Origin: a virus
Taxonomy: Duplodnaviria; Heunggongvirae; Uroviricota; Caudoviricetes
Direction: 5' to 3' (one strand)
IMG/VR virus record: IMGVR_UViG_2718218453_000007
Length of the DNA: 46,144 nucleotides
Shown: piece by piece, positions 33,101 through 37,663 of the stretch
How the letters are laid out: the number at the start of each line of letters is the position of its first letter
Numbering within the stretch: position 1 is the stretch's first letter
The notes under the pieces: generated by a model
What the model was told of the DNA's origin: nothing
The model's input: the letters and a program-made list of their open reading frames with translations, nothing else
The model's database searches: none
Made by a program: the position numbers and the translations under genes

Positions 33101-33943
33101 TCAATGAACGGTATCGAGCAGCTTTAACAGCTCAGGGAATCGGGATTCGAAGAAATGCGGCTGCGTCTCGCGCGGATTTGCGGGACTGGTGATGTTCTTG
33201 CCGAACATGCAGCCTTTCGCTGTCAGCGACCAGAATTTTTTGATGTTGTTAATCGCGGTACGGCTGTATCGTTCGCGCTGCTCGACGATCCCCAGCTTCA
33301 CCATCTGGTGATATGCCTGATTAGCCGTCAGGCGGATACCATACTGTTTCAGCAGTGCACTCAGTGACAGTGTCGGGCGACTTGAGCCATCGTGTGCATC
33401 AGCAGGAGCATCAATGGCATAGCGCGGTGCCAGATTCGGTAAGCCAACAGCCTCCTGGAGTTTCTGACAGGCACCAAGCACTGAAGAGTTAGACAGGTTT
33501 AACTCCCGGCGCATAAAGTCCAGCAGGATCACGCCAGCCTGCATCTTGTCAGCAGCCTGTCCGGATAATTTTTCCGGTACGCTGGTTACCATATCGAAAG
33601 TACGGATCACCTTCAGATGGAATGACGGGCTGATCCACATTGCATAAGCATACACCAGTTCCTTGCAGACATACGTTCCCCGTTCATTTCCCCCATGAAT
33701 CACACTCACCGGGTCAACACCCAAATTCTGGGTGTTGGTCAATTCATGAACAAGCTCAACAGTTTGTTGGCTGGAAAGAAACTTTCCCGGCTCCTTGGTT
33801 CTGGCATTTGCACCAGATGCTACTGCTGCGCGATGCAGATCGTTCAGGCTGTAACGCCCATAAGCATCACGACGAACTTCAATACCATCAATGACCATCA
33901 GATTATTCATACTTCGTTTCTCCTCTTGATCAGGCGGCTGCAC
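33101..33943 (-). CDS. KilA-N domain protein
   Basis: N-terminal IDGIEVRRDAYGRYSLNDLHRAAV pattern typical of KilA-N DNA-binding domains. Confidence 0.6.
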   Translation of the reverse strand: MQPPDQEEKRSMNNLMVIDGIEVRRDAYGRYSLNDLHRAAVASGANARTKEPGKFLSSQQTVELVHELTNTQNLGVDPVSVIHGGNERGTYVCKELVYAYAMWISPSFHLKVIRTFDMVTSVPEKLSGQAADKMQAGVILLDFMRRELNLSNSSVLGACQKLQEAVGLPNLAPRYAIDAPADAHDGSSRPTLSLSALLKQYGIRLTANQAYHQMVKLGIVEQRERYSRTAINNIKKFWSLTAKGCMFGKNITSPANPRETQPHFFESRFPELLKLLDTVH

Positions 33944-34319
33944 CCGCCGTTTTCTCGTACTTACTGATGGTGATCTCGACCTTCCCTTCCGGGATAACCG
34001 GTCCCCACTCCACCAGCATTCTTTTCACCTGTCTGTCGTCTTCCCACACACCCGCGTGGGTCAGGGCGTCAAACAGCGCCTTGTTATAGTTGTCCAGATC
34101 GCGGATCCGGTTATCCGGAGGAAACAACACGATCTCCACTGAAGCAGGTGCCGACGTTGGTTTTGGCAGACGACGTAACTGCTCAACTATTGCTGCGCAC
34201 GCCGCGCTCTGAAATTTTCGCCCCGCCGCGCTTATCAGGCTCTTACCAGCAAATGCCCCTTTGTTGGGGTGTCGCCAGTAGGTGTTCACGCTGGGCGGGA
34301 AAGGCAGGATCAGCTTCAT
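33930..34319 (-). CDS. rusA: Holliday junction resolvase RusA
   Basis: MKLILPFPPSVNTYWR...DLDNYNKALFDALTHAGVWEDD matches the RusA family including catalytic Asp residues. Confidence 0.9.
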   Translation of the reverse strand: MKLILPFPPSVNTYWRHPNKGAFAGKSLISAAGRKFQSAACAAIVEQLRRLPKPTSAPASVEIVLFPPDNRIRDLDNYNKALFDALTHAGVWEDDRQVKRMLVEWGPVIPEGKVEITISKYEKTAGAAA

Positions 34320-34642
34320 ACTTTCAGGCCTCTCTCATGTAACCAGTGAGTTGCACGCAGCCTTGCGTTTTCCTCACCGGCAAGCAGTGAGCGGATAATC
34401 CCGACCGCCTCGCTGTCGTCGTCCTTCACCGCGGTATGAAGCGTGATCCCCCGGGCCACACCACGCTTTATCGTGATGACGCCTTTTTTCTCCAGTGCGC
34501 GAAGATGCTCCACCGCTGCATTCACCGAACGGTATCCCAGCATGGTTGCCACCTCCTGATTGGTTGGCGGGAAGCCACGCTCTTTCTGATAAGAAATCAG
34601 CATATCCAGCACCTGCTGCTGGCATTGAGTTAACGTCGTCAT
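34316..34642 (-). CDS. LexA N-terminal DNA-binding-domain-like protein (no S24 peptidase domain)
   Basis: LTQCQQQVLDMLISYQKERGFPPTNQEVATMLGYRSVNAAVEHLRALEKKGVITI resembles the LexA winged-helix domain; protein is only 108 aa. Confidence 0.6.
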   Translation of the reverse strand: MTTLTQCQQQVLDMLISYQKERGFPPTNQEVATMLGYRSVNAAVEHLRALEKKGVITIKRGVARGITLHTAVKDDDSEAVGIIRSLLAGEENARLRATHWLHERGLKV

Positions 34643-35292
34643 GCCGCCATCTCCCTGACCAGCTTTTCCGCCTGCAGGCGAACCTGCGCCAGAAACGCCT
34701 CACCACATGCCTCAAGTTCATCGCGCCCGATATAGCTGATTGCCGGTCCCTTCCAGGTCTTGTCGAAAACAGCAATAGCACCAGCGAAGAAAGCGCCTGT
34801 CGGCACCTGCTTCTCATCCTTCGGGATAAACCAGGCAGGCAGTTCAAAACCAATACGCCCGCGAATAAAAGCAATATGATCTGCATCTTCCGGCCACCAC
34901 ACTTCGCTGGTGGCAGCTTTGATCAGGAAAACATAGCGCCCGCCCTTATCACGCATGGCACTGGCATGCTTCATGATGTAACGCATGCCGGTGATGTATT
35001 GCCCCTCATGCTGACTGGCGCGGCTGTATGGGGGATTTCCAAAGGCAGCACCTTTAAGCTCCGCAAGGCGTTCTGACCAGTCATGCGCCAGCGCGTTGTC
35101 TTCCGCCGTGTAATACGCAGCGCATTTGGCGTTATCACCGTCAGTGAACAGATCCAGAACAAACGGACCAAACAGGGTGTTAATTCCCCAGAAAATGTTG
35201 TCCGGCGTGCGCCACTGATCGCCCACTTCCTTCAGTTCATGGGCTGGTTTGTTCCGCAGTTCCACCAGCGCCTGGCAATATTTATTACTCAT
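34639..35292 (-). CDS. Phage Dam-type N6-adenine DNA methyltransferase (orphan)
   Basis: NPPY motif (FGNPPYS); stop/start overlap TAATG with the upstream gene at 35290-35294; the track ORF start (35325) is 11 codons upstream. Confidence 0.85.
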   Translation of the reverse strand: MSNKYCQALVELRNKPAHELKEVGDQWRTPDNIFWGINTLFGPFVLDLFTDGDNAKCAAYYTAEDNALAHDWSERLAELKGAAFGNPPYSRASQHEGQYITGMRYIMKHASAMRDKGGRYVFLIKAATSEVWWPEDADHIAFIRGRIGFELPAWFIPKDEKQVPTGAFFAGAIAVFDKTWKGPAISYIGRDELEACGEAFLAQVRLQAEKLVREMAA

Positions 35293-35780
35293 TAAGCCCC
35301 CACGTAATTCCCTGACAGATACCACTCATCACCCGATACAGCGCGCTTGCTGCTTTTCCGTAAACACTGCTCACGACGCGCCAGAAAATTGTTTCGTTCT
35401 GGCTGGGAGTGGCTTTCACGGAATGCAGCCATCCACACCGTTGCAGCACGACGGTATAAGCCCCTGGACTCCAGTTCTTCAGCCTGGCGGGTCAGGCATA
35501 AAATCTCCCGCGGGTCGTTAGTGCCGACATAGAAATTGCGCACAGGTCTGGTTTCACGAACTGGTTGCCGTTCCGCCTCCGGCGATATCTTTATCTGGCG
35601 CGGAAAATGTCTGCGTGTATCCCCTTCACAACGGTGAGCCACACGCCCACTCTGACGTAACTTGCTTGCTGACTGCAGAACGCGCTGCCGTGAGTAACCT
35701 GCAAAAGCATCTGCAATGTCTCCGGAAGTACACCCCGGATGGGCTTCAATGAATTTCTGAACTTCATTCAAAAGACTCAT
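35292..35780 (-). CDS. YfdN-like hypothetical protein
   Basis: 162-aa ORF between the O-like and Dam genes; same position and length as CPS-53 YfdN, from memory. Confidence 0.45.
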   Translation of the reverse strand: MSLLNEVQKFIEAHPGCTSGDIADAFAGYSRQRVLQSASKLRQSGRVAHRCEGDTRRHFPRQIKISPEAERQPVRETRPVRNFYVGTNDPREILCLTRQAEELESRGLYRRAATVWMAAFRESHSQPERNNFLARREQCLRKSSKRAVSGDEWYLSGNYVGA

Positions 35781-35782
35781 GA

Positions 35783-36601
35783 TTACCCCCTGAATCCTGC
35801 CGGGATCTGGCTGTAGTCCACGTTGTCGTAACTGGCTTTGAAGTACGGGTCCTCGCGTCTGGCTGCAGATACCGCAGGAACTTCCCAGGATTCTTCGAAA
35901 TGACGATCCGGACCAAAGAACGTGACAGCCTGTTTCACAAATTGTGTGCCGCTGTTACCCATCGCAGATACCCAGCCCGCATAGCGTTTCACACCTTCCA
36001 GCATGGTTTCGGGGTTTACCCCCTCATTCAAACGGGCTTTCCAGGCTTTGAAGGCTGCAGATTTTGAATTGCCACCAGCACGTTTGGGATATGCCAGCCA
36101 TGCCTGCTCAAACTCCGGAGAGTATTCCGGTCGGTTTGAACGAACTCGCACAGACTCATCAGCAGATGCACCAACAGCTATTGGTTCATTGACTGGTTCT
36201 TTGACTGGTTCAAAAGAGTGACTGGTTCTGGGTGAATCTCCTGCACTACCCCCTGGTGCAACTCCTGCACTACCTGGTGAATTTGCTGCACCAGATAGTG
36301 AATTATTTGCACTACCCCCTAGTGAATCTCCTGCACCATCCAGATGAAGGAGATAGATATTACTTGAGTTACCTTTTTCACCTTTCCGGGTGACTTTTTT
36401 TACCAGCCCGGACTCACAAAGGGCCGCAATATGATTCATCACAGAACGTTTGCTAATCTCGCACTGGTCAGCAATATGCTGGTAGCTGGGCCAGCACTCA
36501 CCCTGATCGCTGGCATTATCAGCCAGCTTGATCAGAACCAGTTTTCGCAATGGATTACCCACTCGAATTTTCATCGCTTTAACCATCAGCTCCATACTCA
36601 T
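35783..36601 (-). CDS. Replication initiator, lambda O-like (N-terminal HTH, repeat-encoded linker)
   Basis: N-terminal KLVLIKLADNASDQGECWPSYQHIADQCEISKRSVMNHIAAL HTH; central low-complexity linker GGSANNSLSGAANSPGSAGVAPGGSAGDSP encoded by DNA direct repeats. Confidence 0.75.
   Translation of the reverse strand: MSMELMVKAMKIRVGNPLRKLVLIKLADNASDQGECWPSYQHIADQCEISKRSVMNHIAALCESGLVKKVTRKGEKGNSSNIYLLHLDGAGDSLGGSANNSLSGAANSPGSAGVAPGGSAGDSPRTSHSFEPVKEPVNEPIAVGASADESVRVRSNRPEYSPEFEQAWLAYPKRAGGNSKSAAFKAWKARLNEGVNPETMLEGVKRYAGWVSAMGNSGTQFVKQAVTFFGPDRHFEESWEVPAVSAARREDPYFKASYDNVDYSQIPAGFRG
36180..36340. repeat. Candidate replication origin iterons inside the O-like gene
   Basis: Three copies of TGACTGGTTC (36184-36227) followed by three to four copies of a ~19-bp unit TGCACTACC(C)CCT(G/A)GTGAA (36241-36336) with internal dyad symmetry. 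Confidence 0.6.
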
Positions 36602-36834
36602 GCTGCACCTCCGAGATGCTTCATGTTTTTTCCGGAGCGAAAGGCTATAAGCGGCATACTGACGCGGTAATTACGGCCCAGCGGTTCACAAATCACCTTC
36701 TGACATTCACGGTCAACCAGGCTGACACGTAGAACATGCCCTGCTGGCGTGGTGTACCACTGCCCAACTGTGGGTGTTGATATTTTTTTACGCTGAAATA
36801 AACGGTAAATGTTGAGGAGCAACGGATTAAGCAT
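36598..36834 (-). CDS. Small hypothetical protein
   Basis: 78-aa ORF overlapping both neighbours by a few nt (operon-like); no family recognised. Confidence 0.35.
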   Translation of the reverse strand: MLNPLLLNIYRLFQRKKISTPTVGQWYTTPAGHVLRVSLVDRECQKVICEPLGRNYRVSMPLIAFRSGKNMKHLGGAA

Positions 36835-37663
36835 GACGATGCCCTCCGCTGATATTCAGGAGACGGTGAATATGAAAATTAGCCTTATCCGCCAGACGAA
36901 TACGTTCAGCTTGCAAGTTAAGAAGGGTTTCTACCAGAACCTGATGTGCCTGCGGATCCGAAAGAGTTACCTTGCGCAGAGCACGTAGTGCAGTTGTTAC
37001 ATAACTGAGTTTATGTAAGTCTTCATCATTCAGACGAGTGAGGGCTGGGACAGTAGCCATGATGGCAGCCTCCTTGATCGGTGAAATACTTCCACCACCG
37101 GAAACGCCAATTTCGCTGGTGGTGAACTGAACGGGGTTGGCGTAACCGGTGATCAAGGAAACCGGCGCATCTTTCGATGCCCCCGCCCAGCCCACCATAA
37201 CTTTGATGTGAGCAAATGCGGACGATAAAAAAGACGCTGGCGCGTCATATATCGCCTTGATCAATTCCAGGACGCCAATCCCGGCACCCGCTTTATAAGG
37301 TGCCTGAACAGTGTAACGTCCCGGAATGGCAGAATCAATGTGCTGGTGGTCCTTCACACTCAACAAAATCACGCTTGAATTTCCACAAAGGACTAAAGCA
37401 CTCATGCGGGTAGTCTTTGCGAAGATAGATAACGCGCTGTGTTTCTGGCTCCCAACGAATAACATGAACATAAAGTCCTCTTCCGTCACGAAACCAGCGG
37501 TTAAGTTCCTGCACAACTCGCCCCCCACAGTCAGGTAAAGTTCTCTGTGGTTACTTACAGCCAGGAGATTTGGTAATCTGCATTCATGCCGTAACAACAG
37601 GTGTTCAGCGACGCTGACCACCAGCTGTTGCGACAAACGGTTATTTGCCGTTAAACTGTTCAT
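36827..37663 (-). CDS. Hypothetical early protein (278 aa)
   Basis: ORF in the early-right operon between the CII-like and O-like genes; no family recognised. Confidence 0.5.
   Translation of the reverse strand: MNSLTANNRLSQQLVVSVAEHLLLRHECRLPNLLAVSNHRELYLTVGGELCRNLTAGFVTEEDFMFMLFVGSQKHSALSIFAKTTRMSALVLCGNSSVILLSVKDHQHIDSAIPGRYTVQAPYKAGAGIGVLELIKAIYDAPASFLSSAFAHIKVMVGWAGASKDAPVSLITGYANPVQFTTSEIGVSGGGSISPIKEAAIMATVPALTRLNDEDLHKLSYVTTALRALRKVTLSDPQAHQVLVETLLNLQAERIRLADKANFHIHRLLNISGGHRHA

Follow-up and report, generated by a model that had tools for sequence, protein, structure and literature searches.

A predicted replication origin with type-specific iterons and a conserved 10-mer block inside the initiator gene of a Caudoviricetes virus

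The initiator gene of bacteriophage lambda holds its own origin of replication. In the group formed by lambda, phi80 and 82, this origin lies in the part of the gene that encodes the interdomain linker: the N-terminal domain of the initiator binds four to six dyad iterons placed about two helical turns apart, immediately past the iterons, in the direction of transcription, comes a distinct element, and the C-terminal domain serves to recruit the helicase loader. At oriL of the Bacillus phage SPP1, the replisome organiser G38P likewise binds repeats in its own gene; an unwinding region lies beside them, and a helicase with its loader takes over from G38P. Here, we examined a stretch of 46,144 nucleotides from a Caudoviricetes virus (IMG/VR record IMGVR_UViG_2718218453_000007; this whole stretch is called the window below), in which a replication initiator gene on the minus strand contains two families of short repeats, a set of dyad iterons and a set of 10-mers. 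We consider it likely, with a rough probability of 0.78, that positions 36178-36336 form a bidirectional (theta) origin inside the linker-coding part of its own initiator gene, working through the three steps set out further below. The iterons themselves are unsurprising, and the ultra-conserved block of 10-mers that follows them is the notable part.

The window locus resembles the lambda group in having its repeats inside the initiator gene and in the interdomain linker, in the sequence character of a phased dyad array, and in the layout of a distinct element directly downstream of the iterons and ahead of the C-terminal domain. It differs in several respects. The dyad cores measure 15 bp, whereas those of lambda measure 18-19 bp; the strongly AT-rich region of about 40 bp in lambda is replaced by an array of conserved 10-mers with about 58% A+T; and lambda has the P gene after O, whereas the window phage lacks a P-type gene. 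A sequence-only reading of this DNA had proposed an organisation like that of lambda ori. The intragenic dyad array, its linker position, the covariation described below and the existence of relatives with a lambda O C-terminal domain bear this out, but a strongly AT-rich region and a P gene are absent here. In the annotated lambda record, four iterons occupy O codons 117-145 and an AT-rich stretch follows. Two iterons plus the AT-rich region are enough for unwinding in lambda, and O binds single-stranded origin DNA (work cited in PMC7466680). Iterons of the lambda type were recoded synonymously in PMC7466680.

Repeats of other types are described from further lambdoid initiator genes. Gene 18 of P22 carries four repeats of about 20 bp and gene 18 of L carries six 11-bp repeats, in both cases inside the coding region and taken as the origin (PMC8022706). 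They are similar to the window in being type-specific repeats within a lambdoid initiator gene, although the repeat sequences differ, and neither P22 nor L is among the block matches listed (60 of 139 records). A likeness to SPP1 may extend to the protein, as the PHROG and Pfam matches of the window initiator include 'DnaD-like' and 'replisome organiser' families (PHROG 1701, 'DnaD-like helicase loader', matches aa (amino acids) 147-249; Pfam DnaD_N reaches 24.3 bits, below its cutoff of 27), although SPP1 belongs to another host phylum. Iteron plasmids (RK2 TrfA, F RepE, pPS10 RepA) place winged-helix initiators on phased iterons beside an unwinding element made of short direct repeats (13-mers), and these unwinding elements offer the best functional analogy for the 10-mer array. 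Their intergenic origins, monomeric WH1-WH2 Rep proteins, non-palindromic iterons and DnaA boxes do not apply to the window, and a Pfam scan gave no Rep_3 match for the initiator. Plasmid Rep proteins are reported to bind one strand of the unwinding-element repeats in a sequence-specific manner (PMC4081077).

The window is the genome of a lambdoid phage. The product of its initiator gene matches PHROG 270 'replication initiation protein' along the whole protein (1.1e-88, aa 3-271) and Pfam HTH_36 at aa 17-67 (44.1 bits, cutoff 25), and the gene is 99% identical to SfV orf39, cdtI orf46 and the replication genes of mEp460, phage 2H10 and Stx2c phages. These matches mark the product as a phage replication initiator. 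In role and architecture the protein resembles O, in line with the earlier description of an O-like initiator, but by BLASTP it is no homologue of lambda O. An AlphaFold2 model, built on an alignment of 26 sequences, gave a winged helix of H-H-H-H-E-E topology for aa 1-88 (block-mean predicted local distance difference test, pLDDT, 70-92), pLDDT below 50 for aa 91-158, and helices of moderate confidence at aa 162-228 in the C-terminal domain. In the model, aa 91-158 is thus a disordered linker. Across the family, the recognition helix and the wing hold most of the variability, with a column entropy of 1.27 bits for aa 48-66 and 1.38 bits for aa 67-88, against 0.47 bits for the near-invariant aa 1-47. 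Foldseek returned generic winged-helix folds only, all with E > 0.02 (the DnaD N-terminal domain, 2v79, at about 0.05), the PDB sequence search gave spurious low-complexity matches only, and the NCBIfam scan gave weak HTH regulator matches only.

Both repeat families are present far beyond chance, and together they encode aa 89-141 of the linker, with folded domains on both sides, as the sequence-only reading had claimed for a low-complexity linker. The dyad family comprises five iterons on the minus strand, IT1 to IT5 in gene order (Table 1), each a 15-bp imperfect palindrome with the gene-sense consensus GTGCA-N5-TKCAC and a phasing of 24-21-21-24 bp. The pattern GTGMA-N5-TKCAC occurs five times in the whole window, at the five iteron starts; shuffled sequence would be expected to hold 0.33 matches, and 0 of 100 shuffles reached five. 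Tandem Repeats Finder, suggested earlier as a check, recovered the array with a period of 21/24 and 4.6 copies. The dyad symmetry noted earlier therefore stands, but not the count of three to four or the unit of about 19 bp, which is out of register: the 19-bp unit (TGCAC-N9-GTGMA) reaches from one core into its neighbour, and the gap between its arms is either 6 or 9 bp. The 5-bp separation inside the core is constant in the window and in every relative examined.

Orthologous initiators retain the repeats. In ST64B (88% identity) and the Aeromonas phage AsXd-1 (69%) we found the same cores at the same phasing, cdtI carries eight cores, three of its units having been duplicated as a 66-bp segment, and all three phages keep both repeat families, so the absence from orthologues that would have spoken against candidate iterons was not encountered. 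Close protein variants hold 1, 2, 5 or 7-9 units, the copy number changing in whole units, and in 71 viral contigs whose N-terminal domain is identical, five is the commonest number of cores (the loci in the protein-based search that supplied the copy-number counts were all identical to the window copy). These differences in unit number between strains, together with the fact that the repeats encode a disordered, Gly/Ser/Ala/Pro-rich linker, would fit repeats that arose as a by-product of slippage in a low-complexity linker, maintained at the protein level or neutral and with no role for the DNA. We regard this explanation as extremely improbable. The arms are kept, in contrast to the variable central 5 nt and the variable encoded residues; the identical core falls into different frames where relatives have it spaced by 22 and 23 bp, and the first 10-mer copy is out of frame with the others, so the repeated entity is DNA and not peptide; in each lineage the whole set of copies has changed over to a new palindromic arm pair; and the block described below is conserved far past synonymous saturation, across flanking GC from 0.36 to >0.6. 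An origin inside the linker, by comparison, fits a disordered region whose DNA can be selected for origin function at little protein cost.

Covariation between the iterons and the initiator carries much of the argument for binding. Across the family we found at least eight arm types, each keeping the dyad and a phasing of 21-24 bp and each accompanied by a distinct recognition-helix motif. They include TGCCA-N5-TGGCA in Klebsiella phages, GGGCA-N5-TGCCC in Stx2a_F451 and Min27, GTGAY-N5-GTCAC in Vibrio D67 and GTGAC-N5-GTCAC in Vibrio D79 and mEp013, besides TAGGC..AAGCA, GTGTA..TACAC and others in further relatives. The helix motifs that pair with arm types include S[KR]RSVMNH, SK[ST]AVRxH, DRSTVR[KR]H, GRSTVKxH and DKRTAMRH; in the Klebsiella type, the helix SKSAVRNH goes with TGCCA-N5-TGGCA. 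About 120 loci usually show 4-5 cores, 21-24 bp apart, with 4-5 of the five arm positions self-complementary, and within each arm type all copies have changed in concert. Such a changeover of all copies at once to a new dyad points to co-evolution of protein and DNA, and by the same pattern the dyad family behaves as initiator-specific iterons. The sequence-only reading had listed both repeat families as candidate iterons; the type-specific dyad family deserves the name, but the TGACTGGTTC family is near-invariant across specificity types and does not.

Dimers of a winged-helix protein on dyads are typical operators, and plasmid Rep proteins are generally known to autorepress and to handcuff through their repeats. 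The dyads might accordingly be initiator sites for autoregulation or copy control, acting as an intragenic roadblock or by handcuffing, with the true origin elsewhere, and nothing computed here shows strand opening. We consider such a role very unlikely as the whole explanation. A scan of 35700-36900 found no sigma-70-like promoter site in or near the array, the window contains no second cluster of such repeats, and an adjacent ultra-conserved element of non-coding type would be unexpected beside an operator. Where chimeras carry the C-terminal domain of lambda O together with lambda P, their layout corresponds one to one to that of the lambda origin.

The second family consists of 10-mers, spread over 36178..36228 on the minus strand. 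The sequence-only reading had counted three copies of the first repeat, and indeed TGACTGGTTC occurs exactly three times, nowhere else in the window, with a degenerate fourth copy beside them. In gene order the copies are spaced 17, 12 and 12 bp apart, the first in a different frame from copies 2-4 (AGA ACC AGT CAC against GAA CCA GTC). Read in gene sense, the region runs from the last iteron through CC, AGAACCAGTCAC, TCTTTT, GAACCAGTCA, AA, GAACCAGTCA, AT and GAACCAATAG. Phages with an identical N-terminal domain carry 2-5 copies. A 37-bp block within this region is the conserved part, and its start always lies 2 bp past the last iteron. A perfect inverted 10-mer, CAGAACCAGT, at 36533-36542, 300 bp from the array, was considered and rejected; it sits in conserved KLVL codons for which relatives use other synonymous codons, and is most likely a chance copy.

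We show that the block is conserved to a degree that its codons would not predict. Ten relatives were chosen by protein similarity only; eight of these carry the block at 86-97% identity, although the N-terminal domains of the same relatives have fallen to a third-codon identity of 0.27-0.52 and a nucleotide identity of 55-74%. A pattern scan that placed no constraint on the spacer matched at least 120 viral contigs, all within initiator ORFs (open reading frames) of the HTH_36 family and in a single frame. The free N6 spacer (n = 100) was TCTTTT in 70 and TCTTCT in 17, with a few other T/C-rich variants, and its third position was T in 100/100, while the encoded dipeptide varied among SF, SS, SL, PS, LS, FI and FS. 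A second sample, selected by protein with other lead sequences and comprising 54 distinct N-terminal peptides, had the exact pattern in 33, and most of the others were recognisable variants with a few, usually non-synonymous differences. The block occurs in cultured phages of at least nine host genera and stays unchanged while the flanking coding GC runs from 0.36 to >0.6. On this comparison it is under nucleotide-level selection regardless of iteron specificity, and its near-invariance across flanking GC of 36% to >60% points to a sequence-specific initiation step not yet described for lambda-like origins.

All but one of 103 block matches in species-representative genomes fall in Gammaproteobacteria. 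The only exact match outside this class, a contig of a Pirellulaceae metagenome-assembled genome (L373), is probably a mis-binned contig.

In the most distant branches of the family (L300, L302, L306, L296-L298, L310 and L216/L217) the 10-mers themselves are different, with the 12-bp period retained: GAAYCTATCA in four copies, CCTAACAnTA in two to three, GAACCTGTCA, and TAACCAGTCA/TAACCAGTAA, and in each case the copies have all changed at once. Such a pattern suggests a reader that co-evolves with the 10-mers. Together with the internal repeats and the fixed spacing, it further suggests that the 10-mers are read sequence-specifically. By analogy with plasmid Rep proteins (PMC4081077) and lambda O (PMC7466680), they may be read as single strands.

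The protein downstream of the block is modular. Block-carrying initiators fall into nine C-terminal classes that combine freely with iteron types. Class C3 shares 51% identity with lambda O aa 159-268 (E = 1e-34) and is followed by a lambda P homologue, and lambda O aa 159 begins directly after the AT-rich region of lambda. In class C2 the neighbour is P-like, and a DnaT-like domain scores slightly under the Pfam cutoff; DnaB-type helicases come after classes C4 and C9, and DnaC-like or P-like genes after class C8. Class C1, to which the window belongs, can stand alone, have a P-like gene beside it or be accompanied by DnaC and DnaB (phiP27); its homologue in phiP27 is L17, after which DnaC-like and DnaB genes follow. 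The presumed role of the C-terminal domain is to recruit the helicase or a loader for it. In relatives alike in the N-terminal part only, homology breaks off right after the block, and in three chimeras (P0064, P0069 and P0072) a foreign N-terminal domain with its own iterons is joined at the block to a window-type C-terminal half. Judged from these joins, the unit of winged helix, iterons and block is interchangeable with the lambda unit of O N-terminus, iterons and AT-rich region, and the block stands in the AT-rich slot.

The same joins raise another possibility, namely that the 37-bp block is a recombination junction for swapping N-terminal/iteron modules against C-terminal/loader modules and not an unwinding element. 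Homology of the N-terminal-only relatives ends right after it, the three chimeras change parent exactly at it, and the nine classes are freely combined with iteron types. However, 37 bp is short for efficient homologous exchange, and a junction leaves unexplained the internal repeats with their fixed 17/12 spacing, the fixed 2-bp gap to the last iteron, and the concerted replacement of 10-mers in distant branches (GAAYCTATCA four times, CCTAACAnTA three times). A junction in place of an origin element is therefore unlikely, while a junction role may well coexist with origin function.

A further alternative is that the 10-mers are duplex sites for a conserved gammaproteobacterial host protein, or for a second surface of the initiator, instead of a melting region. 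The near-complete restriction of the block to Gammaproteobacteria and its independence of the helicase-delivery module that follows speak for such sites, the invariant N-terminal 47 residues are a candidate reader, and distant initiators carry different 10-mers. On the other side, the array gave no DnaA-box or IHF (integration host factor) consensus match, no known factor for GAACCAGTCA emerged (a literature string search gave unrelated primer matches only), and a 12-bp period would leave the sites off one helical face. We consider duplex sites of this kind rather unlikely. The 10-mer family is, from its position and conservation, probably an unwinding or helicase-entry element and not a specificity iteron. 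Going further, we tentatively propose, as a possibility well short of being favoured, that the GAACCAGTCA array represents a new non-AT-rich, sequence-specified unwinding or helicase-entry element, most likely read as single-stranded DNA by the invariant aa 1-47, and common to a very large group of gammaproteobacterial phage origins whatever their iteron specificity or helicase-delivery module (lambda P-like, DnaC-like, phage DnaB or host only).

The origin that we propose would work in three steps. In the first, which rests on the covariation, dimers of the N-terminal winged helix would bind the five 15-bp dyad iterons; with arms one helical turn apart and sites about two turns apart, the dimers would stack on one face of the DNA in an O-some-like complex. 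In the second, suggested by position and conservation, strain from this complex would open the adjacent block, CCAGAACCAGTCAC-TCTTTT-GAACCAGTCA-AA-GAACC, whose 10-mers of 12-bp period are probably a sequence-specified unwinding or single-strand-binding element in place of the lambda AT-rich region. In the third, for which the neighbouring genes of relatives speak, the C-terminal domain would deliver a DnaB-type helicase; as the phage itself encodes neither a loader nor a helicase, the host DnaB-DnaC complex is predicted to fill this role.

Several results weigh against this origin model or soften its support. BLASTP against lambda O gave at best E = 0.02 over 22 residues, between non-corresponding regions and without significance, and a Pfam scan at E up to 0.01 gave no lambda-O family match for the initiator. 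For the C-terminal domain, we found no Pfam family, no PDB relative and no characterised relative. The recognition helix and the iterons lie less than 300 bp apart, so linkage accounts for part of their association. The block has only about 58% A+T (GC about 0.42), and the least stable 30-mer of the window gene lies upstream of the iterons instead (gene nt 226-255, positions 36347-36376); the block thus does not qualify as an AT-rich unwinding element of the classical kind. As a conserved unwinding element the upstream 30-mer was rejected, since it is not AT-rich in GC-rich relatives and encodes the wing, although it may be an unwinding site in this particular phage. Near the array, a DnaA-box consensus scan gave nothing beyond chance-level one-mismatch matches and an IHF consensus scan gave no match; listed here for completeness among the adverse points, these absences neither help nor hurt a lambda-like model. 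Finally, our literature search found no ori cloning, footprinting or marker-frequency data for the HTH_36 initiator family.

The same search found no published description of the origin, the iteron types or the block for this family, although prior mention is possible. Modules of this sort are surveyed by Weigel and Seitz ('Bacteriophage replication modules', 2006), who may already have predicted origins here.

Table 1 Features of the initiator gene and its repeat arrays (positions in the window).
Feature	Position	Strand	Details
Replication initiator gene	35783..36601	minus	272 aa; ORF list, PHROG 270, Pfam HTH_36
N-terminal winged-helix domain, coding (aa 1-88)	36338..36601	minus	AlphaFold2; recognition helix aa ~51-64, beta-hairpin wing aa 67-85
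C-terminal domain, coding (aa 159-272)	35786..36127	minus	class C1 of nine interchangeable classes
Iterons IT1-IT5, in gene order	36322-36336, 36298-36312, 36277-36291, 36256-36270, 36232-36246	minus	
Conserved block, 37 bp	36195..36231	minus	CCAGAACCAGTCAC-TCTTTT-GAACCAGTCA-AA-GAACC, gene sense
Exact 10-mers (three)	36190-36199, 36202-36211, 36219-36228		plus-strand TGACTGGTTC, gene sense GAACCAGTCA
Degenerate fourth 10-mer	36178-36187		plus-strand CTATTGGTTC, gene sense GAACCAATAG
Pyrimidine-rich spacer between 10-mer copies 1 and 2	36212..36218	minus	C-TCTTTT, gene sense

Downstream of the initiator, 33930-35780 on the minus strand encodes a PerC-like protein (YfdN), a Dam-like methyltransferase, a LexA-like protein of 108 aa and RusA; the gene next to the initiator is thus the PerC-like one and not a P-type helicase loader. 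In the near-identical 2H10 record, no helicase or loader is annotated anywhere in the early region, and the window phage would therefore have an initiator-only module that must use host DnaB and DnaC. In K-12-type E. coli, CPS-53 matched only the last ~74 nt of the initiator gene, beside yfdN, and the cryptic prophage therefore has a different initiator gene or a remnant there.

Upstream, a 78-aa ORF of unknown function (36598-36834, minus strand; PHROG 1153) and the initiator start codon overlap by ATGA, a hint that the two genes are translationally coupled. A small ORF also lies directly upstream of the initiator in cdtI (orf45), PhiR63_1 and ZF40 (gp13), a likeness in position, and the 78-aa protein may be a replication accessory protein. 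A terminator-like hairpin at 36378 was set aside, as it is antisense to the initiator gene and at chance level.

Within the winged-helix coding region we noticed a 21-nt imperfect direct repeat (36413-36433 and 36458-36478; 76% identity, 45 bp apart) that encodes HIADQCE and HIAALCE and is present also in ST64B, cdtI and PhiR63_1. The probable cause is that two helices resemble each other, and not a DNA site. Public databases also hold fusions of the initiator N-terminal part to RusA, PerC or Dam domains (P0025, P0027, P0039, P0040, P0047-P0050 and P0076), which look like deletion derivatives in decaying prophages; among these, P0039 is without the last iteron and the whole 10-mer block.

The initiator type is widespread. 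Sequence similar to its gene is present in 2717 of 5426 complete E. coli genomes, 896 of which hold most of the gene, and the same initiator and origin type constitutes the replication module of Stx2c, some Stx2a, cdtI, SfV and ST64B phages. Toxin output in Stx phages is dependent on replication of the phage (PMC7466680). If the proposed origin is correct, these phages would have a precise predicted origin, the family would offer at least eight natural pairs of recognition helix and DNA site for studying how winged helices read DNA, and the 37-bp marker would detect this origin class in any genome. If, in addition, the reading of the 10-mers as a single-stranded element holds, these origins would form a natural combinatorial system, in which a variable address (iterons and recognition helix) is combined with a constant melting site and a variable recruiter.

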